From: a virus
Lineage: Duplodnaviria > Heunggongvirae > Uroviricota > Caudoviricetes
Strand: one strand, 5' to 3'
Length of the DNA: 64,000 nucleotides
IMG/VR virus record: IMGVR_UViG_3300032250_000070
Location: 1 to 64,000 of that record
A program made the position numbers and the translations under genes. The first letter of the stretch is position 1. Every line of letters starts with the position of its first letter. The notes beneath the pieces were generated by a model. The model was not told the DNA's origin. It saw nothing but the letters and a program-made list of their open reading frames with translations, and ran no database searches. Shown in pieces: positions 2,208 through 30,279 of the stretch.

Positions 2208-2526
2208 GAAAACTACATACATAAATACAGAGCTTGAATGGGCTGAGACACAACTTGCTTCATGGAAACAATATGTTGATGCTAATCCACTACATGAACT
2301 AAAGGATAGAATTGAGTGGAAACCTACAGCTAAAGGAGGCATGTTACCTATGGTCATAGCTTCTATTGAAGCACAAGGTAAGTTTGTACAAGAGACAATG
2401 AAAAACTACCTTGCCCTAGTGGAAGTGGTAGATAAGTTAAGAAACATGGAAGAAGCTAAGGTGGAAGTGAGAGGAAAAGGTGAGTTATCAGGAGCAGCTG
2501 CTGAGTTCTTAGCAAATAGAAAATGA
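2194..2526 (+). CDS. hypothetical protein; positional candidate for small terminase subunit
   Basis: 110 aa. It lies immediately upstream of, and is coupled (ATGATAG) to, the large terminase ORF. No motif support. Confidence 0.35.
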   Translation: MATIKKTTYINTELEWAETQLASWKQYVDANPLHELKDRIEWKPTAKGGMLPMVIASIEAQGKFVQETMKNYLALVEVVDKLRNMEEAKVEVRGKGELSGAAAEFLANRK

Positions 2527-4565
2527 TAGAACTACAAAACATAGATTACAAAGACTGGTTTATAAATCAGAAACGTATTCCTGACAAAGACTCTCAGGAG
2601 TGTAAGCCATTCTTTGACTTTCACAGAGAGCTATGTTTGAATGGAGCTATGATGGGGGGTGTTTACATTAACCCCTTTTTGTATTGGCACCTAAACATCT
2701 GGCATACAGAAGTTGACGTAATAGATGAAAGAGGAAGGATTGCACAGAAATATGCCAATCCTTTTTTAAGAGATAATGAATGGCTTGTGACAAATGAAAT
2801 TGACAGAGCTCAACAAGAAAAGAGAGGCTTAGTCATTCTAGGTATTAGACGTTTTGCCAAGTCAGTTTTAGAAGCATCCTATATTGCATGGGGTGCGACC
2901 TTTGATGAAAACAGTCAGAATATCATAGCAGGCTTAAATGCCCCAGATATTAAACTGATTACTGATAAGATTGACAAAGGATTGAATTTCATTCCTGAGT
3001 ATTGGAGATGGCAGAGAATTGAGGACAACTGGAAGAACCAAGTGACTCTAGGTATAAAGACCAAGTCTGGTGAACGTATCCCATTCTCTTCCATTCTAAT
3101 ACGTAACCTTGATGAAGGTAATAATGAAGAGGCAATTGCAGGTACAAAACCACGTAAATTAATTATAGATGAGATTGGTAAAGGTAATTTCCTTCGAGGC
3201 TTACAGGCTGCTATTCCAGGTTTCACAACACCCTATGGCTGGGGATGTTCTCCTATTCTTACTGGCACAGGCGGTGATATGAAGAAATTCATGGATGCAA
3301 AATCCTTGATGTTTGACGTAGACAATTTTAACTTCCTTACATATAATAACAGTAAAGATGACAAACGTGTACATGGGTTGTTCATCTCCCATAAATATAG
3401 AATGGAGGCAAAGGAGGATTCTACATTAGGGACATATTTGAACGAACCATCCACTTCAGACTTACATAATGTAAAGATGCTTGTAAGTAATGAAGAAAAG
3501 GCTACACAGATTACTAATGATAACTTAGAAAGACTTAAGAAAGCTGGAGATAGAATAGCCTACCTAAAAGAAAAAATGTACTATCCTCAGGAAGTGGATG
3601 ATATCTTCTTGAATGAGGACACAAACATATTTGATATTGATAGTGCTAAGAGACAGAAGATTAGATTGTTAAATCAAGAAAGAACAGGAACTCCTGTTGT
3701 CTTGTTTAATGATGGAGAGAAGATAGCTCATGAGTTTACAGATAAATTACCCATCTCTAACTTCCCTCTAAAAAACTCAGACCTAAAAGAAGCACCTGTT
3801 GTTATATATGAATTCCCTATAGATAATCCACCTTATGGATTGTACGTAGCAGGAGTCGATCCATATAGACAAGGTAAGTCTGCATATTCAAGTTCACTTG
3901 GATCTGTATACATATATAAGAGAATGCATGAAATTAGTGGTGAGAAATATCAAGATATGTTCGTAGCTTCGTATTGTGCAAGACCTGATAAGAAAGAAAC
4001 TTGGGAAGAACAAGCTAGATTTCTTATTAAATACTATAACGCTAGAACACTGTGTGAGAATGATGATATATCATTTATTGAATATATGAAGGCTAAAGGG
4101 GATGCTCACTATCTAGAGAGACAACCTGACTGGCTTAAAGAGATTGTTCCTAATACCACTGTAAAAAGAGATTATGGAATTCATCGTTCAAGTCAGAAGA
4201 TAATTGACTATCTTCACACGTGCTTGAAAAAGTATATGGAAGCCCCCATCTTTGTAGAGAAGAATGATGCAGGTGAAGTGATTAGAGAAGTCTTGGGTGT
4301 GAGTAAGATATTTGATCCTGTATTGCTTGAAGAGATTATTCAATACAATGATCAAGGTAACTTTGATAGAATCATTGCTGCAGAGTTAGCCATAGCACAA
4401 GCGTTAAAGATGGACCCAATAATGGGTAAGATAGGTGGTACATCAGATGAGAGAGTGGCTTCTATGTTTAATAAGAAAAGAGGTAATGTACTTTTCACTG
4501 AAACTAGGAACAACATGTTTGGACAATCAAGAAATAAATATAAACGAAATAAATTGTTTTCATAA
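2523..4565 (+). CDS. terL: terminase large subunit
   Basis: 680 aa. It has a deviant Walker A-like GIRRFAKS (compare T4 gp17 SRQLGKT) and a Walker B-like KLIIDEIG. It sits directly 5' of the portal-sized ORF, which is the canonical order. Confidence 0.6.
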   Translation: MIELQNIDYKDWFINQKRIPDKDSQECKPFFDFHRELCLNGAMMGGVYINPFLYWHLNIWHTEVDVIDERGRIAQKYANPFLRDNEWLVTNEIDRAQQEKRGLVILGIRRFAKSVLEASYIAWGATFDENSQNIIAGLNAPDIKLITDKIDKGLNFIPEYWRWQRIEDNWKNQVTLGIKTKSGERIPFSSILIRNLDEGNNEEAIAGTKPRKLIIDEIGKGNFLRGLQAAIPGFTTPYGWGCSPILTGTGGDMKKFMDAKSLMFDVDNFNFLTYNNSKDDKRVHGLFISHKYRMEAKEDSTLGTYLNEPSTSDLHNVKMLVSNEEKATQITNDNLERLKKAGDRIAYLKEKMYYPQEVDDIFLNEDTNIFDIDSAKRQKIRLLNQERTGTPVVLFNDGEKIAHEFTDKLPISNFPLKNSDLKEAPVVIYEFPIDNPPYGLYVAGVDPYRQGKSAYSSSLGSVYIYKRMHEISGEKYQDMFVASYCARPDKKETWEEQARFLIKYYNARTLCENDDISFIEYMKAKGDAHYLERQPDWLKEIVPNTTVKRDYGIHRSSQKIIDYLHTCLKKYMEAPIFVEKNDAGEVIREVLGVSKIFDPVLLEEIIQYNDQGNFDRIIAAELAIAQALKMDPIMGKIGGTSDERVASMFNKKRGNVLFTETRNNMFGQSRNKYKRNKLFS

Positions 4566-7147
4566 TGGCAATTATAAGATACACAAAAGACGCAACAATC
4601 AGGTATGCCTACCTTAATATCTTCCCTGATCAGTTCAAGACTGAGAAGGAAAAGATGGATGAGAGTTGGATTAAAAACTCAATGGATTACTTTGCTAACA
4701 AGGCTTATGCTGAGTATGTAAAGAACAGAGATACATTTGTTAAAAACTATGACCTTGTAAAAGGCATTTTAAGAAGAGAAGATTTCTACCAAGAACCAGA
4801 AGTAAGAAGCTTCACAGATGTGCTCACAGCAGATCTAGCTCTTCCTGCCTATGTAAAACATTATTCTATAATGACCACTCCTATTAATGAGTTAGTAGGA
4901 GAGATCAGTAAAAGACCTGATGCATTTCGTGTCAAAGCATTTGATGATGATAGTAAATCTGAAGAGCTTGAGTTTAAAACTCAACTATTACAAGACTATG
5001 TTGTTTCTCAAGCACAAAGAAAAATATTAGAGAAAGCAGCATTTGATGGTGTAGAAATTTCAGATGATGAGTTACAAGAGAAAACATTAGAACAAGTAAA
5101 GGATGAACTTGATAGCTACACCTCTGTAGCAGAGAAGTGGGCAAATCACATATTGACTGCTGAGAAAGCTGAGTTTGTATTAAAGGAAAAATCTGAAGAT
5201 GCCTTTAGAGATCTTTTGATTTCTTCTAGAGAATTCTTCCATATATATGAAGACAACTCAAAAACTGGATTTAATGTTGAGGTGGCTAATCCTAAGAACA
5301 CCTGGTTCTTAACCACTCCAGATAGAAAGTATATATCAGATACAACTGGTAGAAACCAAGGAGCATATGCTGCTGGTACTGTACAGGTTATGGAACTATC
5401 TGAAATCATTGAGTCTATTCCAGACTTAACTAAAGATGAGATAGATCACTTACGTAGTTCATTACAAGATTATGGTCTTATCAACGTACGTGAATCTAAC
5501 TTGGGTAATCCTGATGCTGTTCCTGGTAATGACTCTATTCAATATGATACATATGATCCATTAGTCCTACAGACTAGAATGATCATTGAGTCTGAGATGA
5601 AAGAGAACAATGATGGTCTTCAAGATTTCTTAGGACTAACGTCAAACGTTAGCTCTTTTGGTTACAAGTATGTTGTGGTAAGATCCTATTGGATTTCTAA
5701 AAAGAAGATAGGAAAGGTAATATATACAGATGAGATGGGTAATGAACAATCCATGTTAGTAGATGAAGACTATAAATCTAAAACAATTCCTACAGAAATT
5801 TCATTAGAGTGGGGATGGATTAACCAATGGTACCAAGGTATTAAGATTGGTCCAGATATCTATCATATCAAACCTTATAACTTATTACCTTACTGTCCAA
5901 TCATTGGTCAAGTATTTGAAGTGAAGAATACAGAGGCTAAGAGCCTTGTAGATATGATGAAGCCTTTCCAAGTTTTATATAATGTGTGTATGAACCAATT
6001 ATATAAGTTGCTTGAGAAGGAAGTGGGTAAGGTGCAATTAATGTCTATCAGACATATTCCTATTCCTAAGGATGGAGATGCACAAGATGCTCTTGATATT
6101 TGGGAAATGGAAGCTCGTAACAGAGGTGTGGTGTTTGTAGATGACAGCCCTGAGAACTTAAAGAGCCCAAGCTCATTTAATCAATATACTAGCTTAGACC
6201 TTACACGTACGCAGGAGATCCAAGCAAGATATACTTTAGCACAACAACTTAAGAATGAGTGTTGGGAATTGATAGGTATGTCAAGACAAAGACTTGGTTC
6301 TGTACAGGCTAGTGAATCAGCTACAGGTACTAACGCAGCTATTACACAATCTTATGCTCAGACAGAACCTTTGTTTGTAGCTCATGAATATGTATTAGGT
6401 CAGCTATATCAATCAATTATTGATGCAGCTTTATATGTTGAGAGTAAGAAGCCACAGTCTACTATATCTTATGTTACATCTGAGGGAGAATCTGCATTTG
6501 TATCTGTGAATGGTACAGACTTACGTTTTAGAGACTTAAAAGTATTCTTAACTAATAGACCTGAAGACAGACAAATGTTTAATGAAATTAGAGGATTGTC
6601 TCAAGCTGTTATACAAAATGGTGGAAGCTTACATGATGTAATTGAACTATATAGCACCAACTCAATGAGACAAATGAAGCAGGTGTTTAAGAAGTTGAAG
6701 GATAGACAAGAAGCTATACAGAATACTCAGATACAACAGAAGCAACAAGAGATTGAACAACAACAACAAATTGCTCAAGCTCAAATTGAAGCAGCTCAAG
6801 CACAAGCAGAAGAAAAACTAGCTAATGAAAACTATCAAGCTGAACTTGATAGAATCAACAAGAAGGAGATTGCTCTTATTGCAGCTGAGTCTAAGAGTGG
6901 TCCTTTATCAGATCTTGATACTAGTGGCACCCCTGATGTTTTAGAGATTGACAAACTAGCTTTGGCTCAGTCAAAGGCTGAAAGAGACTATCAAGCTAAG
7001 ATGATGGATGTACAAAGTAAGAATCAACTTGCTACTCAGAAGCTAGAAATAGAAAGAGAGAAGCTAAAGATAGCTAGAGAGAATCAAGCAAATGATCTTG
7101 CTGTAGCTAAAGAGAACGCTAAGGGCAGAGCTAAGAAAACCAAATAA
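4565..7147 (+). CDS. portal protein (putative) with Q/A/E-rich C-terminal coiled coil
   Basis: 860-aa ORF. It follows terL with a TAATG junction. A C-terminal low-complexity coiled coil (QQKQQEIEQQQQIAQAQIEAAQAQAEEK...) is present. The call is by position and size only. Confidence 0.5.
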   Translation: MAIIRYTKDATIRYAYLNIFPDQFKTEKEKMDESWIKNSMDYFANKAYAEYVKNRDTFVKNYDLVKGILRREDFYQEPEVRSFTDVLTADLALPAYVKHYSIMTTPINELVGEISKRPDAFRVKAFDDDSKSEELEFKTQLLQDYVVSQAQRKILEKAAFDGVEISDDELQEKTLEQVKDELDSYTSVAEKWANHILTAEKAEFVLKEKSEDAFRDLLISSREFFHIYEDNSKTGFNVEVANPKNTWFLTTPDRKYISDTTGRNQGAYAAGTVQVMELSEIIESIPDLTKDEIDHLRSSLQDYGLINVRESNLGNPDAVPGNDSIQYDTYDPLVLQTRMIIESEMKENNDGLQDFLGLTSNVSSFGYKYVVVRSYWISKKKIGKVIYTDEMGNEQSMLVDEDYKSKTIPTEISLEWGWINQWYQGIKIGPDIYHIKPYNLLPYCPIIGQVFEVKNTEAKSLVDMMKPFQVLYNVCMNQLYKLLEKEVGKVQLMSIRHIPIPKDGDAQDALDIWEMEARNRGVVFVDDSPENLKSPSSFNQYTSLDLTRTQEIQARYTLAQQLKNECWELIGMSRQRLGSVQASESATGTNAAITQSYAQTEPLFVAHEYVLGQLYQSIIDAALYVESKKPQSTISYVTSEGESAFVSVNGTDLRFRDLKVFLTNRPEDRQMFNEIRGLSQAVIQNGGSLHDVIELYSTNSMRQMKQVFKKLKDRQEAIQNTQIQQKQQEIEQQQQIAQAQIEAAQAQAEEKLANENYQAELDRINKKEIALIAAESKSGPLSDLDTSGTPDVLEIDKLALAQSKAERDYQAKMMDVQSKNQLATQKLEIEREKLKIARENQANDLAVAKENAKGRAKKTK

Positions 7148-7149
7148 CT

Positions 7150-7680
7150 ATGTTTGATAAACTAATTGATGTATTAATTGAATGGTGGAATCATATTCTA
7201 CCATTCATCATTGTTAGAGATTATGAACAAGCTGTACTTCTAAGATTTGGAAGGTTTAATCAAGTGTTGCTTCCAGGCATACATTTCAAGATACCTTTCT
7301 TTGATGAGGTGATTGATCAGCATGTTGTAGTTACAACACTTAGTTTGGATGCACAGTCTTTATACACCTTGGACAAACAAAACATTGTTGTCAAGGGGGT
7401 TGTAAAATACAAGATATCAGATGTAAAGATATTCCTACTTGAAGTGTTTGATGCCCAAGATGCATTGTCAGACATGTCTCAAAGCATAATAAAAAACGTT
7501 ATTATGTCAATGACCATGGAGGAATGTACAGATTCTGAGTTAGACAACACTTTAACAAAGAAGGTGAGAGTGGAAGCTAGGAAGTGGGGTGTTGATGTTC
7601 AACAAGTTACATTGACAGACCTTGCTCCAATTAGAAGCTATAGGCTTATAAATGACAATTTTCTTAACAAATTAGATTAG
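7150..7680 (+). CDS. SPFH (band 7 / stomatin-prohibitin-HflK/C) domain protein
   Basis: 176 aa. It matches the SPFH core along its whole length: ...YEQAVLLRFGRF..LPGIHFKIPFFDEVI...VVKGVVKYKISDV... and the C-terminal WGVDVQQVTLTDL (compare WGIxVxxVxIxDI). Confidence 0.8.
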   Translation: MFDKLIDVLIEWWNHILPFIIVRDYEQAVLLRFGRFNQVLLPGIHFKIPFFDEVIDQHVVVTTLSLDAQSLYTLDKQNIVVKGVVKYKISDVKIFLLEVFDAQDALSDMSQSIIKNVIMSMTMEECTDSELDNTLTKKVRVEARKWGVDVQQVTLTDLAPIRSYRLINDNFLNKLD

Positions 7681-7765
7681 AGTAAAAAATATTAATGCTA
7701 TATTATATTGAATAATGATCGATATAAAGGCTCCTCTCTTTGCTGTTAACTTAACTTAATATACT

Positions 7766-7802
7766 TTTACATACGAAACCAATTAAAACTCAACTACATA
7801 TG
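7766..7802 (+). promoter_or_regulatory. conserved leader/promoter-like element TTTACA-N(~28)-CAACTACATATG spanning the start codon of the 7800 ORF
   Basis: The same AACTACATATG start context recurs at 10851-10862 and 19531-19541. All three follow intergenic gaps or terminators. Confidence 0.4.
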
Positions 7803-9080
7803 GCTGAAAATCTAGATATGCCCCAAATGGGCAACTTCAGTATTCAAGATACTATGGATATGGGAATGGGAAATCAAGAGTTATTAAATGACTTATTATC
7901 TCCTGATAGTGCTACATCTAATCCTGATGACATTCAGGACATTAAAGATGAACCTGCTCCTGCTCCAACAAAGAAAACTACTTCTAAACAAACAGCTGCA
8001 TCAACTCCTGCTCCAGAAGAAGATAAGAAAGATGAAGCTCCTGAAAAGGACATTCAAAGTTTCTTATACGGAGAAGATGATGACACTGAAGAAGATGATG
8101 AAGAAGCAGCTGCACCAGCTAAAAAAGCTACGCAACCTGCTGATAATCAAGAAGATAGTAATGACGAGAATGATGAGGAAGGAGATAGTGCTCCTGAATC
8201 AACGTTTTCATCTTTATCCAAAGACCTTTTCAAACTTGGTGTATTCACCCAAGGAGAAGATGATGAAGAAGAACCAATTACAACTGCTGAAGAATTCTTA
8301 GAGCGTTTTAATGCTGAGAAGAAAAAAGGAGCAATTGAAGTGGTTGATAACTTCATTGGTCAGTTTGGAGAAGATTATCAAAAAGCATTTGATGCCATAT
8401 TTGTAAAAGGAGTTAGTCCAAAAGACTACTTTAGTGCATTTAATCAAATCCAATCTTTCTCTGAGATGGATTTAAGCGATGAGAGTAATCAAGTTGCTGT
8501 TATCAAACAAGCATTGACAGATCAAGGGTTTGATCCTGAAGATGTTACAACAGAGGTTGAAAGACTTAAAAACTATGGTGATTTAGAAACTGTTGCTGCT
8601 AAACATCATAAAGTCTTAATAAAGAAAGAAGCATCAAAGCTTCAACAATTAGAGCAAGATAAACAAGCTCAATTACAACAGCAACAAGCCATCAAGCAAC
8701 AATACTTACAGAATGTAAACAATGTTTTACAGGATAAGATCAAAGCTAAAGAATTTGATGGCATACCAATTAACCCTAAATTAGCTGGTGAACTACAAGA
8801 TTTCCTAGTAACAGACAAGTACAAGACAGCATCTGGAGAAACTCTTACAGATTTTGATCGTACTATACTGGAGCTGAAACGTCCTGAGAATCATGAGAAG
8901 AAAGTTAAACTTGCTCTATTGATGAAAATCATTGAGAAAGATCCTACACTATCTACAATTCAAAAGACAGGTATCACCAAAAAATCAAATGAGTTATTTG
9001 GTGAGGTTGCCAGACAAGCCCAGAAGAGTTCAGTGAAATCGAAACAGTCAGCTAGATCTACTTCTTCTTGGTTTCAATAA
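7800..9080 (+). CDS. acidic, D/E-rich coiled-coil protein; putative scaffolding protein
   Basis: 426 aa. It is highly acidic (EDDDTEEDDEE...) with a Q-rich coiled coil (QLEQDKQAQLQQQQAIKQQ). It lies between the portal and the putative major capsid protein. Confidence 0.5.
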   Translation: MAENLDMPQMGNFSIQDTMDMGMGNQELLNDLLSPDSATSNPDDIQDIKDEPAPAPTKKTTSKQTAASTPAPEEDKKDEAPEKDIQSFLYGEDDDTEEDDEEAAAPAKKATQPADNQEDSNDENDEEGDSAPESTFSSLSKDLFKLGVFTQGEDDEEEPITTAEEFLERFNAEKKKGAIEVVDNFIGQFGEDYQKAFDAIFVKGVSPKDYFSAFNQIQSFSEMDLSDESNQVAVIKQALTDQGFDPEDVTTEVERLKNYGDLETVAAKHHKVLIKKEASKLQQLEQDKQAQLQQQQAIKQQYLQNVNNVLQDKIKAKEFDGIPINPKLAGELQDFLVTDKYKTASGETLTDFDRTILELKRPENHEKKVKLALLMKIIEKDPTLSTIQKTGITKKSNELFGEVARQAQKSSVKSKQSARSTSSWFQ

Positions 9081-9115: not shown

Positions 9116-10669
9116 ATGGCAATTCAAACAATTCCAGGTTTAACTGGATTTACTTATGCTCGTGTCGCTTCTATGGATAAGCGTGCAGTAGGTAAGTTAA
9201 CTGACTCAAACCATTTAGAGAGCTTTCACTCTACAGAGCCTGCAGACTATGATAAGAAGATTATCAGTTTGTACACTCAGAGTTCTCTTTATAGTAATGA
9301 TTTCTTAGACATGATTAACAAGTCTACTCCTTACTATATCGATAACAACAGTGATGCTTGGAAATGGCAAGTACAAGTTCCTTACAAATTCCCAAAAATC
9401 ATTGATGTTCCTACTTCAACTTTAGAGTTGTCAAAGCCAGGTATTGATGGTCAAGAGTTCCAATTGATCCTTGACACAAATGAGTTCTCTAAGAACGCTA
9501 TCATTTCTGTAGGTACTCGTCAGTATGGTCCTCGTTTCTATGTAGTAAAAGATCCTGTTCCTTGGAACATGGGCTTCTTGTACACTTTCACTTTAGTAAG
9601 TGACAACCCAACAGTTGATTTCGTAAGTGCTACTTTCTTACAAGTAGGTATCGAATTAGAATTGGTTGATGCTGCTATTGGTGAGTTCGATCAAGACTTA
9701 TTAGGTCTTCCTCGTTTAGGTGAGCAAATCACAATGTTTGAATCTTTAGGTTCTGCATATGGTTATGAGCACAAAATCACTGAGTGGGCTGATGACAAGA
9801 TGATGAGAGATGCTTCTGGCAAACCTTTAGATATCTTAGTATATGCTCCTCAAAGACGTAACCAATTACCTTTAACTCGTAATGATGTTAAGTGGGAACC
9901 ATTTATTGAGTTCTGGATGCGTAAGTCTATGTTAGAATTAAAAGTTAAGCGTATGATCTGGGCTCGTCCAGGTACTGTGAAGACTAATGGTTCTAAGCAA
10001 GAATTAAAGCGTACATCTGCTGGTGTTTACCACAGAATGCGTAACAATGGTAACTTAGTTCAATACAATCGTGGTGAGTTCACTGCAAACTTGATTCGTT
10101 CAGTGTTTGGTGACTTATTCTACAGACGTGTTGATGTTAAAGATAGAAGAGTTAAAATGTACACTAATGAAGCTGGTTTTGACGTGTTCCAACAAGCTTT
10201 GAAGAATGACGCTTTGAACTCTGGTTTAACTTTCATGGCTGATTCTGGTAACAGATACATGCAAGGTGAAGGTCAACATATCACTTACAACTTTGCATTC
10301 GATGCAATGGTAACTCGTGAGACTGGTCGTGTTGAATTAATTCACTTGAAAGAATTAGACTTACCTCAAACAAACTTAGAATTTGGACAAAACAAGAAGT
10401 CAACTCCAGTATTTATGGTGTTCGATGTATCTCCAATGTCTGATGGTTCTATGATCAATAACATTCGTGAAGTACGTATGAAGGGTGCTCCTTCTATGAC
10501 TTGGGGTTATATCGATGGTACTCGTCACCACTTAGGTTTTGCTAAGTCTCAAGGTATGAGTTCTGCGAACAAATTCCCTGGATATGAAATCTGGATGAAG
10601 GATCGTTGTGATGTATTCATTGAAGATTTATCTAGAACAGTATTGATTGAAGAGATTCCTCAATTCTAA
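9116..10669 (+). CDS. major capsid protein (putative)
   Basis: 517 aa. It follows the scaffold-like gene. Frequent GGT/CGT/TTC codon choices suggest codon usage of a highly expressed gene. A strong hairpin follows. Confidence 0.55.
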   Translation: MAIQTIPGLTGFTYARVASMDKRAVGKLTDSNHLESFHSTEPADYDKKIISLYTQSSLYSNDFLDMINKSTPYYIDNNSDAWKWQVQVPYKFPKIIDVPTSTLELSKPGIDGQEFQLILDTNEFSKNAIISVGTRQYGPRFYVVKDPVPWNMGFLYTFTLVSDNPTVDFVSATFLQVGIELELVDAAIGEFDQDLLGLPRLGEQITMFESLGSAYGYEHKITEWADDKMMRDASGKPLDILVYAPQRRNQLPLTRNDVKWEPFIEFWMRKSMLELKVKRMIWARPGTVKTNGSKQELKRTSAGVYHRMRNNGNLVQYNRGEFTANLIRSVFGDLFYRRVDVKDRRVKMYTNEAGFDVFQQALKNDALNSGLTFMADSGNRYMQGEGQHITYNFAFDAMVTRETGRVELIHLKELDLPQTNLEFGQNKKSTPVFMVFDVSPMSDGSMINNIREVRMKGAPSMTWGYIDGTRHHLGFAKSQGMSSANKFPGYEIWMKDRCDVFIEDLSRTVLIEEIPQF

Positions 10670-10731
10670 TAATGCCCCTCTAAGGATAGTATTCTTAGAC
10701 TGATACCCTTGGTGTTTCGCATAAAAAAATC

Positions 10732-10770
10732 AGAAGACTTTCCCCCCACCTCCAAGTGGGGGAGTCTTCT
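10732..10770 (+). terminator. very stable 15-bp interrupted hairpin (AGAAGACT..CCCCCAC/GTGGGGG..AGTCTTCT) after the capsid gene. It has an A7 run upstream and no T-run downstream on +. Likely terminator or RNA-stabilising stem-loop.
   Basis: Base pairing was worked out by eye: 10732-10739 pairs with 10763-10770, and 10743-10749 pairs with 10756-10762. Confidence 0.45.
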
Positions 10771-10825
10771 AACACAGATGGACAGGTACAAGTAAATGCT
10801 GTACAGTGTTCCCTTCGATGGGGAC

Positions 10826-10862
10826 CATCTGCAAATAAACCAAATAAAAACAACTACATATG
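10826..10862 (+). promoter_or_regulatory. second copy of the conserved start-context element ...CAACTACATATG
   Basis: AAAAACAACTACATATGGGC compares with AAACTCAACTACATATGGCT at 7785. Confidence 0.4.
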
Positions 10863-11825
10863 GGCAAGATAGGAAAAATTTCTACTATTAAAAAAGACTA
10901 CAACAATTCTCAGTTACAAACTATGCAGGGTGGACTTGCATCAAGAGGATACACAAGAATTCCTGGTACAGGAGTTTTTAAATATCCTTATAAAGAATTG
11001 GATGGTCAGTACAGAACAGGCTTAGATCCAAAAGCTGCTTACATCAGAAGAATCTCTGATCCTCTTGAAAGAGAGATGGAGGTTGAGAGAGTAACAGAAT
11101 TAAGAGATAAACTTGAAGCAGCATTAAATGTTGACTTAAATCCTCGTTCTAGTTTCTGGAACTATGGATTATCAACTTCTACTGATGATTCACTACATGT
11201 ACAACCTGTTAAGCTTATGGATGGCGACAATTTTTATGATTTGTCAATGCCATTGCAAGAGCTAGCATTCTCATGGTTGAGAGTTCATCCAACAATTGCT
11301 TCTAGCTATCAAGCTTGGGAGCGTGGTGAATTCCCTGCAGACATTCAATATTATGTTGCAGATGATGAGATTGAAAACAAGGTGATGTTTAAAAAGAAAC
11401 AACTTATTAATAAAGCTATTATTAAGTTTGATTCTATGACTCCTGAGAAGAAGAAGAAAGTGGCTCGTCTACTTGGTCTTCCAGTATCTGATGATTCTAA
11501 AGAAGAAGCAGTTTACAATCAGGTGGATAACCTCCTAAAACAAACAGAATTCAAGAATGGCAAATATCAAGGTTTGAACCCTATAGAAGTGTTCAACAGA
11601 TTTGCAGACATGAAGGAAAACTTGCTACATATCAAAGACCTAGTAAAACAAGCTGTTGCTCATTCAGTTTATAGAGTGAGACCTAATGGTAGAGTGTTTG
11701 AAGGTGAATTTGAAATAGCAGTTGATGAAGATGATTTAGTTAAGTTCCTTGCAGATGAAGACAACCAAGATCAATTATTGACTTTGGAAGGCAAGTTGAA
11801 AGGAAAAAAAATAGCCTCATTATGA
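10860..11825 (+). CDS. hypothetical virion/head-associated protein
   Basis: 321-aa ORF in the structural block. Confidence 0.5.
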   Translation: MGKIGKISTIKKDYNNSQLQTMQGGLASRGYTRIPGTGVFKYPYKELDGQYRTGLDPKAAYIRRISDPLEREMEVERVTELRDKLEAALNVDLNPRSSFWNYGLSTSTDDSLHVQPVKLMDGDNFYDLSMPLQELAFSWLRVHPTIASSYQAWERGEFPADIQYYVADDEIENKVMFKKKQLINKAIIKFDSMTPEKKKKVARLLGLPVSDDSKEEAVYNQVDNLLKQTEFKNGKYQGLNPIEVFNRFADMKENLLHIKDLVKQAVAHSVYRVRPNGRVFEGEFEIAVDEDDLVKFLADEDNQDQLLTLEGKLKGKKIASL

Positions 11826-15913: not shown

Positions 15914-17860
15914 ATGGCTTGTAATCCTGGCGATCCTTGCTACAACGCATACTATCATCCAAGTGAAAACTGTGGTTCTTTTCCTTGTGAAACAACAGCA
16001 GATCGTGTTATATATAATGGACCTAACTTACCTAATACAGGAATCAACACTGGAGATAATCTAGACTGTGCTCTATTAAAAATAGATGAAACATTTAGTG
16101 GTGGTGTAGTGGGTATAAATGGTACATCTGGTAGTTCTGGATTAAATGGATCTAGTGGTAGATCTGGTACTTCTGCCACTGCTGGCACATCTGGAGCTAA
16201 TGGTGCAGCAGGTACTTCTGGAACAAATGGTACATCAGGAAACAATGGTACTAGTGGTATATCTGGTACAAATGGTGTATCTGGAAGCTCTGGTACATCT
16301 GGTCGTGAAGGTCAGCCTGGTACCTCTGGTAGTTCTGCATCAAGTGGTTCATCAGGCACTTCTGCCACTGCAGGAACATCTGGAAGAGATGCAACTTCTG
16401 GTTCATCTGGTCAAGATGGTAGCTCTGGTACGAGTGCAAGCTCAGGTACATCTGCATCTAGTGGAACTTCTGGAACTACTGGTACTACTGGTACAAGTGG
16501 TACAACTGGAACTACTGGTACATCAGGAACATCAGGTGTTGATGGTGGTCTTGCAATCTGGCAATATAGTTCAGATACTACTGATACATCTATTAATCCT
16601 GGAGCAGGAAGGTTTACATTAAATACTTTACTTTGGAACGTTGCTCCAACACAGATTGCTCTAAGCGACTTTGCACAAATTCCTGCAGCAGATTTCTCTT
16701 TATATTTAGAAGGTATTCAAACTGGTGTAGTGTTTAAGTTTGTAAGTACAATTGATCCAAACAGATTCAAAATACTTCAAGTTATAGCTACAGCACCTTT
16801 TGAAACAGGGTTTGAAACATATGTTGTAAGTGAAATAGCGTGGAATGGTACAGCTCCAGCAAATGGTGAGCAATTTGTGTTCACTGTAACAAGTATTCCT
16901 GGTGCAGCTGGATCATCTGGCACATCTGGATCTTCAGCATCTAGTGGTACATCTGCGTCTAGTGGTACGTCTGCATCATCTGGAACCTCAGCATCTTCTG
17001 GAACAAGTGGAACCTCTGGTACCAACGGTACTAGTGGAACTAATGGAACTAGTGGTTCTAGTGCGACTAGTGGTTCTAGTGGAACTTCAGGTACTAATGG
17101 TACATCTGCTACTGCTGGAACAAATGGTACGTCTGCATCTAGTGGAACTAGTGGTTCTACAGGCACATCAGGTACTAATGGTACTAGTGGTTCTAATGGC
17201 ACCTCTGGAACAAATGGTACCACTGGAACATCAGCTTCTAGCGGTACATCTGCATCGTCTGGAACTAGTGCAGCAAATGGAGCAAACGGATCTAGTGGAA
17301 CAAGTGGAGCAAATGGTGGTAATGGATCTTCTGGAACCTCTGGAGCTAATGGTGGAGCTGGATCTTCTGGAACCTCTGGAGCTAATGGCGGAGCTGGTGG
17401 AGATGGATCTAGTGGAACTAGTGGAGCCAGTGGTGGAAGTGGTTCATCAGGAACTTCTGGAGTAGGGTTTACTTCCATTTCACCAACTAATTCAGGAGCT
17501 GTGCTAACAGCTAATGGAACATCTAATAGTGCAACAGCAAATACAGGTGTAACAATAAGTGGTTCTAATCTTACTGCCGCAGCATTTTTTGAAAGTTCAG
17601 ATGTAAGATTTAAAAATGTAATTGAAACCAATCCTCAAATAGATTTAACAGATATAGATATAATTAAGTTTACAAGAACTGATGATGATACCAATGCAGT
17701 AAGATATGGATATTCAGCACAACAAGTGCAATCTATATTACCAGATGCTGTGACAGGAGAAGACAAATTAAGTGTAAACTATATGGATGTTCACACATTG
17801 AAAATAGCAGCATTAGAAAAACGTATTGCAGAATTAGAAGCTAAATTGAGTAACTTATGA
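15914..17860 (+). CDS. collagen-like (G-X-Y, X-Y mostly T/S/N/A) tail fiber with C-terminal intramolecular chaperone / peptidase S74 auto-cleaving domain
   Basis: Two long GTSGTNGTSG... triple-helix repeat arrays lie at about nt 16120-16545 and 16900-17460. The C-terminal ~87 aa begin SDVRFKNVIE ... YGYSAQQ ... LPDAV ... VNYMDVHTLKIAALEKRIAELEAKL. This is the SDxRxKxNI start motif and coiled-coil tail of endosialidase/T5 L-shaped tail fiber chaperone domains. Confidence 0.85.
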   Translation: MACNPGDPCYNAYYHPSENCGSFPCETTADRVIYNGPNLPNTGINTGDNLDCALLKIDETFSGGVVGINGTSGSSGLNGSSGRSGTSATAGTSGANGAAGTSGTNGTSGNNGTSGISGTNGVSGSSGTSGREGQPGTSGSSASSGSSGTSATAGTSGRDATSGSSGQDGSSGTSASSGTSASSGTSGTTGTTGTSGTTGTTGTSGTSGVDGGLAIWQYSSDTTDTSINPGAGRFTLNTLLWNVAPTQIALSDFAQIPAADFSLYLEGIQTGVVFKFVSTIDPNRFKILQVIATAPFETGFETYVVSEIAWNGTAPANGEQFVFTVTSIPGAAGSSGTSGSSASSGTSASSGTSASSGTSASSGTSGTSGTNGTSGTNGTSGSSATSGSSGTSGTNGTSATAGTNGTSASSGTSGSTGTSGTNGTSGSNGTSGTNGTTGTSASSGTSASSGTSAANGANGSSGTSGANGGNGSSGTSGANGGAGSSGTSGANGGAGGDGSSGTSGASGGSGSSGTSGVGFTSISPTNSGAVLTANGTSNSATANTGVTISGSNLTAAAFFESSDVRFKNVIETNPQIDLTDIDIIKFTRTDDDTNAVRYGYSAQQVQSILPDAVTGEDKLSVNYMDVHTLKIAALEKRIAELEAKLSNL

Positions 17861-22008: not shown

Positions 22009-22977
22009 ATGGCATATTACTACAAATACAATTTTGTCTCACCTGAACCAATTTATTCAATTGTTAAGGAAGAGTTAAAATCTTATTTTGACACAGGGGC
22101 AGTGGATGATTTGCTTTTCCCTACTTATTTAGACAAATGTCTACAGAAGTTAGGTAGGTCAAGTTATGTTATTGCTGAACAGACATTGGATATTTCTGGT
22201 TATGAGGCTAGGCTTCCTGACAACTTCTTTGCTGTTAGAGAAGCTTGGATGTGTACAGAGCTTCCTCAACGTCCATACCAAACCCCTAACTCATTCTATT
22301 CTCAAGCTGCTTCTCAAACAACAATACAAATAAGTCCTATCATTAGTGGTGGGGTTCCTTGTGTAGAACCTAATTGTACAACAGGATGTCCTACATGTAT
22401 GCCTGATATCATCCAAGCAGTGTATAAAACCAATCAGCAAATAGCTAGAGGTATAAAAAAAGAATACTTATTAAAACCAGGTAATATATCTTGTCAAGGC
22501 AAATGTGATGTGAGTTATACAGATGCTTGGCAGTTTTATTCAACTGCCCCTCCTGTGCATGAATTCACTCCAGGAAGTGCTGGATATGATAGCTTTGATA
22601 TTAGAGATAATAAGTTTGTTACCAATTTTAGTTGTGGTGTGGTTCATATGATATTCTATGCTACAGACTATGATGCTGTTGGTAATCAATTAATTCCTGA
22701 TAACTATCGTGTAAGAGAGTTTATAGAAGCATTTATTAAGTTCAAGGTGTTTGAAACTTTAACAAATCAAACTAATGATGAAACCTTTAACCAACTTCAA
22801 ACTAAGTTAGCTTATTACAAACAGTTACATGATGAGGCATTCATTATGGCTAGTATTGAAATAAAGAAACAAGACGCATGGACTAAACAAAGAAGAGTAA
22901 GAAATGACTTACAACGCTTTGGACAATATGAATTACCAAATAGAAGCTCAAGATATGGCAGTGGATGGAACAGATAA
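22009..22977 (+). CDS. hypothetical structural protein (Cys-containing)
   Basis: 322 aa. Its 3' end overlaps the next giant ORF in the +1 frame. Confidence 0.5.
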   Translation: MAYYYKYNFVSPEPIYSIVKEELKSYFDTGAVDDLLFPTYLDKCLQKLGRSSYVIAEQTLDISGYEARLPDNFFAVREAWMCTELPQRPYQTPNSFYSQAASQTTIQISPIISGGVPCVEPNCTTGCPTCMPDIIQAVYKTNQQIARGIKKEYLLKPGNISCQGKCDVSYTDAWQFYSTAPPVHEFTPGSAGYDSFDIRDNKFVTNFSCGVVHMIFYATDYDAVGNQLIPDNYRVREFIEAFIKFKVFETLTNQTNDETFNQLQTKLAYYKQLHDEAFIMASIEIKKQDAWTKQRRVRNDLQRFGQYELPNRSSRYGSGWNR

Positions 22978-25900
22978 TCAAGGAACATCTAACGTAAGAC
23001 AAGAATACAATCTTGGCAGAGTTGGATTAGATATGGACTCTTCTGTAAATCAAGTACAGAAGGGTAAGCTTTCTTATGCTCTAAACGCAGCATTAGAAAA
23101 CTTTGACTCTAATTCTGTAAGTTATCAGAATGAGCCAAGTAATGAGGCTTGCTTAGAGTTTCCTGAAGGCTACCAACTTATTGGAACACATTTCATACAA
23201 GAGAAAAACAAACACATATTCTTCTTAGCTAATCCTCAAACAGGAGGAAGTGAGATAGGATATATGGATAACAATGATTGTGTATATCGCACGCTATGTA
23301 CAGAATATCCTGATTTAGAAATCACTGTATGTGCTAACTCAGACTGTTTAAACTTTGATATAGATCATCCAATACACAAAGCTGTACATAAGATAACTAA
23401 CTGTACTACAGAAGTTTATTGGACTGATGGATTGAATCCAAGAAGATTCATCAACATTGAACAAGTTCCTTACATCACCACCTATCTAAACAATCAGACT
23501 TGTGATCCACAGATCCAAGCAGTATTAGATTGTAATAAGTTAAATGTACAACCTAACTTTCAAATTCCTAATATAGAAGTTTCTGATATTGTTGTAGGAG
23601 GAGATTTAAAAGCAGGCACTTATCAGTTTGCTGTTCAATATGGTAATGCTTCAGGAGATGCTTATACATCCTACTATTCTGTAACCAACCCTGCATCTAT
23701 TGCTAATACAGAAATAACAACTCCTGACTTTCAATATTCTGTAGGTCAATCTATTGTATTAGACATTACTAACTTAGATGTTTCAGGATACTTCCAATAT
23801 TTTAACTTGGCTGTTATTAAAACCATTAATAATGGTACCACTGTAGAATTAGTGGGAACATATAGTATTCAAGAAAAAGAAACACTTATTACTTACACAG
23901 GACAGAACATGACTCAGATTCCTTTGAGTCTTGGAGATGTTCTTGAAAAGTTTCCTTATTATGATATTGCTCAAGATGTAACAAATGTACAAGATTATAT
24001 AGTTTGGGACAATCTTACTTCTATTGATAGAATCAACTATCAAAGCATTGCTAATCAAATACAACTTCAATGGGAGACATATAAGCTACCAGCTGGTAAT
24101 ACCTATGCTGATGCTTTTTACACTGCTAATTTGAGAGGATATTTGAGAGATGAGGTGTATGCTTTTGAAATTGTATTCTTATTAAATAATGGTAAACAAA
24201 CAGATGGTTTCCATATTCCTGGTAGAGTTAAGAACTTCAATGAGCTATCTGAGCCAGATGTAACTACAGCTAATAATGATTATATTGGAGATGGAACTCC
24301 TCAACCTTATTGGAAGATATATAACACTGCTAGTGTATCTACAACCTATCCTGCTCCTACAGATGGTAGTAGGAAGATAGGAGATGCATATCCTTATCAA
24401 TCTGGAGAATTTGCATATTGGGAGTCTACTGATAGGTACCCATGCAATGTAGACGTGTGGGGAGACTTAGCTGATGAACCTATCAGGCACCATAAATTTC
24501 CTGATGTTCTTGTAAGTCCTTACTTTGAGAGCCCAACCATTATATATTCTGGAGGTCAGATAGACCCTGTAATGCAAGTTGCTAATGCTACTTATCCAAT
24601 AGGTGTAAAGATAGATGTACAACAAGTAGCTTTTGCTATTCAAAGGTCTAGTTTAACAGATGCAGAAAAAGCATCTATTGTTGGATTTAAAATAGTAAGA
24701 GGTAATAGAAGTGCAAACAAATCTATTATTGCTAAAGGTATCCTTAGAAACGTAGGTAAATATACTAGAGAAGATCCTACTGATCCAGATGCTACATACT
24801 ATTACTATCCTAACTATCCATATAATGACTTAAGTGAAGATCCATTCTTACTTGAGAGAAACAATGCATACAACTCTCAATGTGATACATACTCTGTATC
24901 AGTGACAACTGCTGGTACATTACAATATACAAACTGTTTTACAGGAGAACCAGATACACAAGCTTTTAATAGTAGCACCACTGAAATATGTTCTATTACG
25001 CTTCCTGTTGTAAATAGTGGAGAAGCTACATTTACAAATGTTACAACTACGTCATATACAATCACTGTAAATAGTAGTATACTTAGTACTACATTTAATT
25101 ATACAGATCCAGTTACAGATGCTTTACGAAGCATTGTAGTTCCTAAATCAAGTTCTCGTTCAGTAAACTCTAACACTGTTCCTGTACGTACATCAGGAAC
25201 TACTAACTATACAATGGTTGCTAGCAATAGTGGTCAAAACAATGAATGTTATCCTGCTAAGTTAAATGGATTTAACAATCCTGATTCTGCTTACAGACAA
25301 GTATTTAATTCTCCTGAGACATCTTTTGGACAGCCTACATTAGGTAATGTTCTTAAATTAGAAAGTGTATTGTTTGGTGGAGGAAGAGCTCATTTTGTTG
25401 AAGTGCAGAAGCATGCTATGTATAAGCTTATCACTAAACAAACACAAATTGATGCTTTAGATTCTAGTAAGAGAATAGCTGATCTTGGAGGATTTAGTCC
25501 TGTAGCGTTCTTCACAGCATATCAAACTTACTTACAGATTTATATTAATGGAATTAGTAGACAAAACTTTGCATATTCATTTAACTCTAGATCTAGTTAT
25601 GACTATAGTGCAGATGTTCCTAATGATCAAGGAATTAAACAAAGACAGCTTGATAAAGTTCAATATGTATTTCCAGGTGTACAGAATGTAGGTGATAATT
25701 ATGATCTTAATAACTGGAATAGAGAATCTTCAGTTTATATTAAAACTATTGATAATAGAAACGGTGTACCTTTTACAGTGTCTCCTTTACCATATCCTAA
25801 CCAAACTTCTTCTCTTGTTGTAGCAGGTGTAAGTCAGATTAGTGATAATTCAAGATTTACAATTTCAGAAGCAGAAAACTGTGCTAGCCCTGAAGCTCAG

Positions 25901-29757: not shown

Positions 29758-30279
29758 ATGGAAATCTGGAAAAATATACCTAGTCTTAACAATTTATATG
29801 AAGCAAGTAATCTTGGTAGAATAAGATCTGCATATGGTAAAAACAAAGGTAAGGTTCTAAAAGAGTATATTAAACATCCTTCAAATATTAATTATAATTT
29901 TGTAGAAGTACATATAGATGGTAAAAAATGGGCAAAGAAAGTACACAGACTTGTAGCTGAAGTATTTTGTGAAAATTCTGAAAATTATCCTATTGTGATG
30001 CATTTAGATAATGATAGAAGAAACAATAGAGTAGATAATTTACAATGGGGTACATTAAAGATGAATTCTCAACAAATGATTACTGAAGGAAGAGGAAATA
30101 AATCTAAAGGTAGTGATCATTATTTTTCAAAACTAACTGAGGATCAAGTAGTTGAAATAAGAAAAAAGTATATTCCTAGAAAATATACTTTACAACAATT
30201 AGCTAATGAGTATAGTGTAAGTTTTGGTTTAATTGGACATGTAGTAAAAAATAGAAATTGGAAACACGTAATTGCATAA
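29758..30279 (+). CDS. HNH homing endonuclease (NUMOD4-like N-terminus + HNH_3)
   Basis: IWKNIPSLNNLYEASNLGRIRS matches the IPGFEGYYEVSNxGRVRS-type motif. HRLVAEVF...HLDNDRRNNRVDNLQWGT is the HNH_3 core. It is a free-standing selfish element inside the structural module. Confidence 0.8.
   Translation: MEIWKNIPSLNNLYEASNLGRIRSAYGKNKGKVLKEYIKHPSNINYNFVEVHIDGKKWAKKVHRLVAEVFCENSENYPIVMHLDNDRRNNRVDNLQWGTLKMNSQQMITEGRGNKSKGSDHYFSKLTEDQVVEIRKKYIPRKYTLQQLANEYSVSFGLIGHVVKNRNWKHVIA

Follow-up and report, generated by a model that had tools for sequence, protein, structure and literature searches.

A predicted SPFH core protein without anchor or coiled-coil is encoded in a variable slot behind a phage portal gene

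Why does a tailed phage carry a gene for an SPFH/band-7 protein inside its head module, between the portal gene and the genes for a scaffold-like protein and the major capsid protein (MCP)? The question is raised by IMG/VR record IMGVR_UViG_3300032250_000070 (Caudoviricetes), of which positions 1 to 64,000 were analysed (hereafter the window). The open reading frame (ORF) at 7150..7680 on the + strand, here called mini-SPFH, starts with ATG at 7150, ends with TAG at 7678-7680 and encodes a protein of 176 amino acids (aa; 20.5 kDa, isoelectric point 5.1). Judged from its structural model, the product is a genuine SPFH core that has neither a membrane anchor nor a coiled-coil or C-terminal part. 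Comparison of related loci indicates that the gene is an optional accessory gene in a variable slot at the 3´ end of the gene string formed by the terminase large subunit (TerL) and the portal. We are confident that a protease, a canonical HflK/C protein and a core component of the capsid can all be discarded as identities. As to what it does instead, we tentatively favour a late, non-structural accessory protein that would act on a membrane or on a membrane-protein target.

The original prediction, made from the sequence alone, assigned the protein to the SPFH/band-7 proteins and proposed a Pfam Band_7 search, which bears the assignment out. Band_7 (PF01145) matches residues 21-160 of the 176 (profile positions 2-147) with E=7.1e-26 and 91.8 bits against a cut-off of 23.6. 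The conserved SPFH strand is WGVDVQQVTLTDL, from W146 to L158; the predicted WGxxVxxVxIxDL motif is found there in the form WGxxVxxVxLxDL, with Leu in place of the expected Ile. An AlphaFold2 (AF2) model computed from 30 close homologues (82-94% identical) had a pLDDT of 45.6 and was unusable; a model computed from 111 diverse family members reached a pLDDT of 94.9 and a pTM of 0.83. It comprises a helix (residues 2-16), a β region (19-89), helices (92-146), a further β region (148-160) and a low-confidence tail (161-176, pLDDT 61-75). The top Foldseek match in the PDB is the human stomatin cage 9oh9 (E=1e-14, TMq 0.77). HflK, HflC, QmcA, prohibitins, erlins and flotillins are also matched; for stomatin, HflK/C, QmcA and prohibitin the match probability is 1.00 and the E values range from 1e-14 to 1e-10. 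In agreement with the model, a PDB-sequence profile search aligned residues 17-162 with the SPFH part of stomatin, QmcA and HflK/C.

The protein is truncated at both ends of this core. The SPFH core itself (residues 19-160, 7204..7629 on the + strand) aligns with the SPFH domains of stomatin, HflK and QmcA. At its N-terminal side no transmembrane (TM) helix was found, the best 19-residue Kyte-Doolittle mean being 1.27 against a usual threshold of 1.6, and the N-terminus holds no lipobox or signal-like n-region. The absence of an N-terminal TM helix had been correctly predicted; the AF2 model places an amphipathic helix there instead (residues 2-16, 7153..7197, + strand), and residues 1-18 have a hydrophobic moment (muH) of 0.54 and a mean hydrophobicity (H) of 0.4. 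The second loss, that of the whole coiled-coil and C-terminal part, had been overlooked. The stomatin alignment stops at the 'LP' that precedes the stomatin coiled-coil, and only 16 residues follow the last SPFH strand in the phage protein, compared with ~88 in stomatin. These residues form the C-terminal tail (161-176, 7630..7677, + strand), which contains R162-S-Y-R165-L and sits where the coiled-coil would be. In stomatin, Pro-200 immediately precedes a coiled-coil of 44 residues. If either this coiled-coil or the C-terminus is removed, the mutant protein is found only as mono- or dimers, and the study describes the coiled-coil as 'clearly essential' to oligomer formation (PMC5456319). The original prediction had reasoned from the rings and cages into which SPFH proteins oligomerise. 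This argument fails to carry over, because the phage protein ends at the equivalent of stomatin Pro-200 and is without CC1/CC2 and the C-terminal region. By analogy with stomatin, a higher-order ring or cage is not expected by the known mechanism.

Human stomatin (9oh9, 9z7u), E. coli HflK/HflC (7vhp, 7wi3, 9cz2), QmcA (8z5g), prohibitins, erlins and flotillins share with the phage protein the SPFH α/β core (Foldseek E 1e-14 to 1e-8, TMq 0.6-0.78) and the WGxxVxxVx(I/L)xD(L/V) strand. However, they are ~250-420 aa long, compared with 176 aa, and possess an anchor (TM helix, hairpin or lipid), the CC1/CC2 wall helices and a C-terminal cap/ORA, all of which are missing from the phage protein. 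Unlike them, the phage protein is also leaderless, phage-encoded and without an NfeD or HflC partner gene. A closer likeness is provided by isolated SPFH constructs of mouse stomatin (4fvf/4fvj) and P. horikoshii PH1511 (3bk6/8gn9), which correspond in extent to the last two-thirds of the phage protein (TMt 0.8-0.9, root-mean-square deviation 1-2 Å). These constructs have no coiled-coil and form dimers or trimers but no cages (PDB entry titles; PMC5456319), although they are laboratory truncations without the N-terminal helix and the first β-strands that the phage protein keeps.

The fold matches raise the question of whether the protein is a canonical HflK/C-like regulator that cages host FtsH and thereby controls proteolysis. 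HflK/C structures are among its top fold matches, its best NCBIfam match is hflK (1e-20), and IMG labels its homologues 'regulator of protease activity HflC'. Yet the hflK match (TIGR01933) scores 74.3 bits against a cut-off of 159.4 and covers only profile positions 1-147 of 261, and hflC (TIGR01932) scores 51.5 bits against 134.4. The coiled-coil, the C-terminal cap, the TM helix and the signal sequence are absent. HflK and HflC come as a pair, whereas a single gene is present here, and a tblastn search of the 64-kb window found no second SPFH copy. In E. coli the SPFH domains of HflK/C are periplasmic, so a leaderless protein cannot reach their compartment. An FtsH regulator of the HflK/C type, one of the roles suggested earlier, is thus very unlikely. 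The IMG annotation habit should be corrected as well, since the proteins labelled as an HflC/HflK 'regulator of protease activity' fail the tests for HflK/HflC. The operon pairing of SPFH with NfeD (stomatin/STOPP, QmcA-YbbJ) was likewise rejected, the neighbours of the gene being the portal and the scaffold-like gene. A Pfam scan of 28 window proteins, a set that excludes the giant ORFs and the 3´ third, gave no NfeD or ClpP-like match. A layout that does recall the cellular SPFH-NfeD pairs was seen in a human-faecal 'Bacteriophage sp.' (L169, MT835563.1, 3248-4636), where an SPFH ORF of 301 aa, far longer than the mini family, is followed immediately by an ORF of 159 aa.

All 80 IMG/VR loci found with the SPFH protein have the order TerL-portal-SPFH-scaffold-like-MCP, with median identities to the window of 90% for TerL, 83.7% for the portal, 83.5% for SPFH, 72.5% for the scaffold-like protein and 96.9% for the MCP. 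Metagenomic relatives picked by MCP identity (L083-L088 and L136) give a different picture. The SPFH gene is absent from L083, L086 and L088, whose MCPs are 83%, 86% and 84% identical to that of the window, and in which the scaffold-like gene comes directly after the portal. It is present in L087 (MCP 85% identical; SPFH 177 aa, 58% identical), L136 (MCP 80%, SPFH 62%) and L085 (MCP 88%; SPFH 173 aa, 27%). Flavobacterium phage FpV4 and Leptolyngbya phage Lbo-JY46, neither of which is among the tblastn matches of the SPFH protein, also have the portal, then a ~400-aa gene, then the MCP. In a neighbour-joining tree of portal and MCP, the SPFH-negative lineages are interleaved among the SPFH-positive ones. 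The sister loci L085 and L087 are 89% identical in TerL, 80% in the portal and 92% in the MCP, yet 29% in SPFH; a divergence of this size amid well-conserved backbone genes points to replacement of the SPFH allele.

The boundaries of the slot are also conserved. In SPFH-negative phages TAATGC(T/C)ATATTA follows at once after the portal stop. In SPFH-positive phages this motif is displaced to a point past the SPFH stop: 152 of 153 locus records, a set in which some contigs are counted twice, have its GCNATATTA core ~12 nucleotides (nt) beyond that stop. The insertion is clean and the head module is complete without the gene, so there is no 'empty protease slot'. The original prediction had seen the gene as lying where a prohead protease would normally sit. 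This does not hold for FpV4, Lbo-JY46, L083, L086 and L088, where the portal stands directly before the scaffold-like gene. A divergent prohead protease in a portal-protease-MCP arrangement would be suggested by the gene position alone, in analogy with HK97-type modules. It was rejected, with a likelihood next to nil, given the high-confidence SPFH fold, the lack of any protease family match in Pfam, PHROGs and NCBIfam, and the empty position in relatives.

The same comparison bears on a role in the virion, either as a capsid decoration or cement oligomer, as proposed earlier, or as an internal or portal-proximal head protein. The gene lies within the head module, flanked by the portal and scaffold-like genes. 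The major vault protein, one of the fold matches, shows that a large protein shell can contain SPFH domains, and mass spectrometry has recorded SPFH proteins of other phages, at low counts, in crude phage preparations (PMC10892097, PMC6034870). Against this, the gene is missing where the MCP is 83-86% identical, and its allele is swapped (29% identity) while the MCP remains 92% identical. The protein is without the oligomerising coiled-coil, a high copy number would not be expected from a gene upstream of the scaffold-MCP unit, and non-head contexts are found in other phages. A virion protein therefore has little likelihood. Because the gene is optional and swappable between close relatives, it would fit an accessory late gene better than a part of the capsid or a stand-in for a protease.

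Further contexts extend beyond the immediate relatives. In L166, with an MCP only 22% identical to that of the window (Crass_capsid 1e-13), an SPFH protein of 52% identity is encoded in the matching slot, just ahead of the scaffold-like and MCP genes. In L158, which is crAss-like by a CrAss_Ring_2 match, the gene is located in the tail module, before a gene for a 1516-aa protein, and starts 2 nt past an HNH/EndoVII-like gene. In L147 it is downstream of a metallophosphoesterase gene, and in the 45-kb podovirus MW202733 it is directly behind TerL. In all contexts recovered, the gene stands behind another late gene.

These proteins belong to what their sequences indicate is a large, distinct and coherent family. 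A HMMER search of 1.84 billion representatives at 50% identity returned 4589 matches at E<=1e-3, 825 at E<=1e-10 and 60 at E<=1e-30. Among the 150 best representatives, 135 are 160-195 aa long; they align from residue 1 to ~170 with 31-69% identity. The family is defined by a length of ~165-190 aa, an N-terminal helix, the SPFH core, a (R/K)(S/T)xRL motif and the absence of a coiled-coil, and the window protein has all of these features. Across 111 diverse members the helix has the consensus MFDxLIDxLxxxWxxxxP, with median muH 0.56 and H 0.32 and ~3 acidic residues among the first 17. G34, G43, P49, T63, Q69, D75, D108 and G147 are conserved, as is the C-terminal (R/K)(S/T)xRL, whose R165 is found in at least 90% of them. 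Among predicted viral structures, the best match is UniProt A0A6J7WFI0, named 'HflK protein' and assigned to an uncultured Caudovirales phage (173 aa, TM 0.90/0.91, 28% identity). The same mini architecture is shown by this protein and by the 'prohibitin-like protein' of Caudoviricetes sp. ctgrD200 (MW202733; a 173-187-aa ORF directly behind TerL). Both come from other phage backbones and carry only automatic annotation, as do the mini members in public databases generally ('HflK', 'prohibitin-like', IMG 'regulator of protease activity HflC').

All mini-SPFH loci recovered come from phages or phage-like contigs. When 185,579 species of bacteria and archaea, each represented by a single genome, were scanned by pattern, two loci only were found, a 59-kb contig in a Sediminibacterium metagenome-assembled genome (MAG) bin and a 6.7-kb contig in a Saccharibacteria MAG bin. 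The scan used two peptide patterns of one subgroup and covers only relatives close to it, so the absence of the family from cellular genomes is provisional. Phage genes of crAss-like type were verified on the 6.7-kb contig. The 59-kb contig is probably a binned phage, to judge from the 81% identity of its SPFH protein to that of the window (L165, JBBAJX010000014.1, from a freshwater Sediminibacterium sp. MAG, Chitinophagaceae). A profile search of a 5.8-billion-protein set recovered mostly the 176-aa clade and no wider range of contexts. Single-protein scans of viral contigs with the distant representatives P0340, P0257 and P0345 gave no matches, and the scan with the L085 allele matched that allele alone. 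Recent capture from a host was rejected, because the gene has the GC content of its neighbours (0.37) and the closest solved cellular homologues are ~22% identical.

Longer SPFH proteins of other phages differ from this family. The phrog_200 'lipoprotein' and the proteins of Vi01-like phages, the T4-like 44RR/Aeh1/RB43, Agrobacterium phage OLIVR1 (gp51c) and jumbo phages are ~280-390 aa long, have a lipobox or TM segment plus a coiled-coil, and are usually encoded outside the head module. The phrog_200 profile matches the window protein at 1e-10 through the core only (profile positions 103-258 of 379).

The mini-SPFH gene is under strong constraint. Among 55 distinct alleles of the main clade, the ratio of nonsynonymous to synonymous substitution rates (dN/dS) is 0.073, which indicates strong purifying selection and argues that the gene is not a chance ORF. 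The corresponding values are 0.061 for the MCP, 0.086 for TerL, 0.104 for the portal and 0.179 for the scaffold-like gene. In the main clade the length is constant at 176 aa and the C-terminal half is nearly invariant.

The start of the gene is tied closely to the portal. The stop codon of the portal ORF (4565..7147, + strand) is the TAA at 7145-7147, and just two bases, 'CT', separate it from the SPFH ATG, so that the junction at 7145..7152 (+ strand) reads TAA-CT-ATG with a spacer of 2 nt; the predicted geometry, with a portal stop at 7147 and an SPFH start at 7150, is exact. Of the 153 locus records, 61 have a spacer of -1 nt, in which stop and start overlap as TAATG, and 87 have one of +2 nt. 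Since the SPFH start abuts or overlaps the portal stop, the gene is probably the last cistron of the TerL-portal unit, made late through translational coupling in roughly portal-level amounts. Beyond it lies a conserved intergenic region of 119 nt (7681..7799, + strand), which bounds the variable slot. The scaffold-like and MCP genes lie past this region and would therefore form a separate, stronger expression unit.

Two elements in this region may have a regulatory function. The 13-mer TAATGCTATATTA is present at 7693-7705, and an exact search found it twice in the 64 kb, there on the + strand and at 593-605 on the - strand, the second copy lying ~70 nt ahead of the ORF that opens the IHF-TerL gene string. 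In relatives it is conserved behind the portal or SPFH stop, and it might act as a regulatory element or terminator specific to these phages. A TAnnTTT(G/A) box at 7762-7769 lies 31 nt ahead of the scaffold-like ATG; a box of this type was found ~25-35 nt upstream of that ATG in every relative examined, and the box of L086 is an exact TACCTTTG. We take it to resemble the Bacteroidota -7 promoter element, in which case it would hint at a Bacteroidota host and at late transcription by host RNA polymerase. The 119-nt region might serve as a promoter or terminator. A sigma-70 promoter scan around the SPFH gene performed no better than on shuffled sequences. One + strand 'terminator' call was disregarded as it lies inside the SPFH coding sequence. 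The -7-like box and the Sediminibacterium MAG bin are the hints available on the host. That bin is a weak one, and bin-based hosts disagree, since the MCP of another relative is labelled as from an Alphaproteobacteria MAG.

The junction provides the main argument for the strongest rival, a helper of the portal or packaging vertex that tethers or nucleates the portal, or a terminase-portal complex, at the inner membrane or at an assembly platform. Such a helper would improve procapsid initiation without being essential. In 148 of 153 locus records, that of the replaced L085 allele among them, the SPFH start lies against the portal stop or overlaps it. The slot is reused in L166 despite an MCP identity of 22%, the gene stands directly behind TerL in an unrelated podovirus, and the divergence of SPFH in the main clade tracks that of the portal (median identity 83.5% vs 83.7%). 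The membrane-bound initiator role of T4 gp40/gp20 would be a functional analogue. However, heads are assembled without SPFH in L083, L086, L088, FpV4 and Lbo-JY46. A specific portal-binding surface is hard to reconcile with a 29%-identical allele beside an 80%-identical portal, and neither the tail-module position in L158 nor the metallophosphoesterase neighbour in L147 fits a vertex function. We regard this role as doubtful, though still conceivable; the membrane-associated assembly factor listed as an option in the original prediction may also apply.

The mobility of the gene suggests another alternative, in which it takes part in conflict as a late superinfection-exclusion or anti-defence factor altering the membrane or a membrane-bound component. 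A conflict role would explain the rapid gain, loss and allele exchange. In its favour are the patchy distribution among near-identical backbones, the allele replacement, the spread over unrelated phages and slots, the adjoining HNH endonuclease gene in one case and the strong purifying selection inside each lineage. On the other hand, PADLOC and defence-related profiles gave no meaningful match, the dN/dS of 0.07 carries no signal of diversifying selection, and no SPFH-fold protein with a known part in exclusion or anti-defence came up in the literature search. This gene lies in a late operon, whereas most exclusion genes are early. We consider this role unlikely.

For the preferred reading, a late accessory protein with a membrane or membrane-protein target, the following mechanism can be envisaged. 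Since the coiled-coil is missing, the protein would act as a monomer or small oligomer and not as a cage. It might dock through its amphipathic helix together with that face of the SPFH core which lies nearest the membrane in cage structures. The docking site would be the cytoplasmic side of the inner membrane or a membrane-protein partner. Candidate partners are a host SPFH or quality-control assembly, or the lysis or entry machinery, which could be modulated in the last phase of infection to the benefit of the phage. Several observations weigh against this picture. The N-terminal helix has acidic residues on its polar face (D3, D7, E11), an unusual feature for a helix binding to the anionic membranes of bacteria. 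The helix is placed confidently by AF2, so it may just as well be packed against the domain or provide a contact to another protein. In addition, the abutment to the portal or TerL and the reuse of the slot in a divergent phage could reflect a tie to the packaging vertex.

A bolder variant, which we also hold to be improbable, is that the mini-SPFH proteins are a leaderless class invented by phages, functioning either as 'broken bricks' of host SPFH cages or as a membrane-docking platform for the portal/terminase vertex. As broken bricks they would insert into or cap stomatin-, QmcA- or flotillin-like or FtsH-associated cages and disable late membrane-protein quality control. The cassettes would then be swapped between phages to suit the membrane machinery of the host.

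Phage genomes have listed SPFH genes for ~20 years, and no tested function was found in the literature. SPFH/band-7 ORFs are reported from T4-like, Vi01-like and jumbo phages and Schitoviridae, with their function called unclear (PMC1524935, PMC10892097, PMC6034870, PMC13239085). A 2026 preprint mentions a cd03408 match in a gut Crassvirales genome, obtained through a lifestyle classifier, without location or structure (10.64898/2026.08.21.746148). Our literature search turned up no functional study of any phage SPFH protein, and neither the truncated architecture as a family nor the dynamics of the slot is described in the literature covered. The domain match itself is routine. What the comparison adds is that many phage SPFH genes form a coherent, strongly constrained and naturally truncated family, consisting of the core and one helix, which moves between phages yet stays in late operons. 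The family is large, clean and experimentally tractable. It offers a compact natural probe of the SPFH domain without a cage, and its 20-kDa members are convenient candidates with which to look for a membrane or protein target that phages manipulate at the end of infection. The view of head assembly in crAss-like phages is unchanged, because the gene is dispensable among close relatives.

The genes around the slot identify the phage. TerL (680 aa, 2523..4565, + strand) matches phrog_6681 at 7e-84, and its stop overlaps the start of the portal gene. The portal (860 aa) matches phrog_6547 at 1e-101 and Pfam P22_portal at 1e-13, and is the upstream partner of SPFH in one tightly packed gene string. 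The next gene (7800..9080, + strand) encodes a 426-aa protein whose N-terminal half is acidic and of low complexity, whereas its C-terminal half is helical. Its sole family match is phrog_16294, of 'unknown function', and it is 26-28% identical to its positional counterpart (~400 aa) in FpV4 and Lbo-JY46. From its position and composition it is named scaffold-like. The predicted location between portal and scaffold is thus confirmed by family match for the portal, and is probable for the scaffold. The crAss-type MCP (517 aa, 9116..10669, + strand) matches Pfam Crass_capsid (PF23898) at 2e-28 and phrog_11589. CrAss_Ring_2 and CrAss_Ring_1 proteins are encoded farther downstream in the window, and an IHF-like protein is encoded upstream of TerL. 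On account of the Crass_capsid MCP, the CrAss_Ring proteins and the IHF-like protein upstream of TerL, this freshwater phage is classed as crAss-like; its P22-style head module has the order TerL-portal-[SPFH]-scaffold-like-MCP. A DNA search of GenBank phages with the head module gave no match. By MCP, the closest cultured phage is Lbo-JY46 (L081, PP438436.1), a 125-kb cyanophage (26% identity, E=8e-32); it has a block of tRNA genes upstream, and all genes in the region are annotated as hypothetical.

Endonuclease genes of the HNH type are scattered through the structural modules of these phages and are possible vehicles for cassette exchange. The window encodes a NUMOD4+HNH_3 endonuclease in its structural module (29758-30279), L158 an EndoVII/HNH-like protein directly upstream of mini-SPFH (7336-7998), and FpV4 (L082) an HNH protein following the MCP (10477-11259). 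In L086 (1-3003) TerL exceeds 1034 aa and has a faint LAGLIDADG_3 match, which suggests an intein or a homing-endonuclease insertion.

Elsewhere in the window, a protein of 648 aa (15914-17860) contains five collagen triple-helix stretches (Pfam Collagen, 3e-30) and is presumably a fibre. Giant ORFs are a trait of crAss-like genomes, and the window has them on the + strand at 22904-28423 (1839 aa), 36676-47643 (3655 aa), 47643-52643 (1666 aa) and 52663-56679 (1338 aa). The first 330 nt (1-330) form a G-rich, ORF-poor leader with GGGGG runs, small palindromes and a GC skew of 0.35. Three iteron-like copies of GTCAAGCTATAGCTTT are located in this leader at 143-158, 176-191 and 217-232, and the leader might mark a genome end or an origin, or have a regulatory function.

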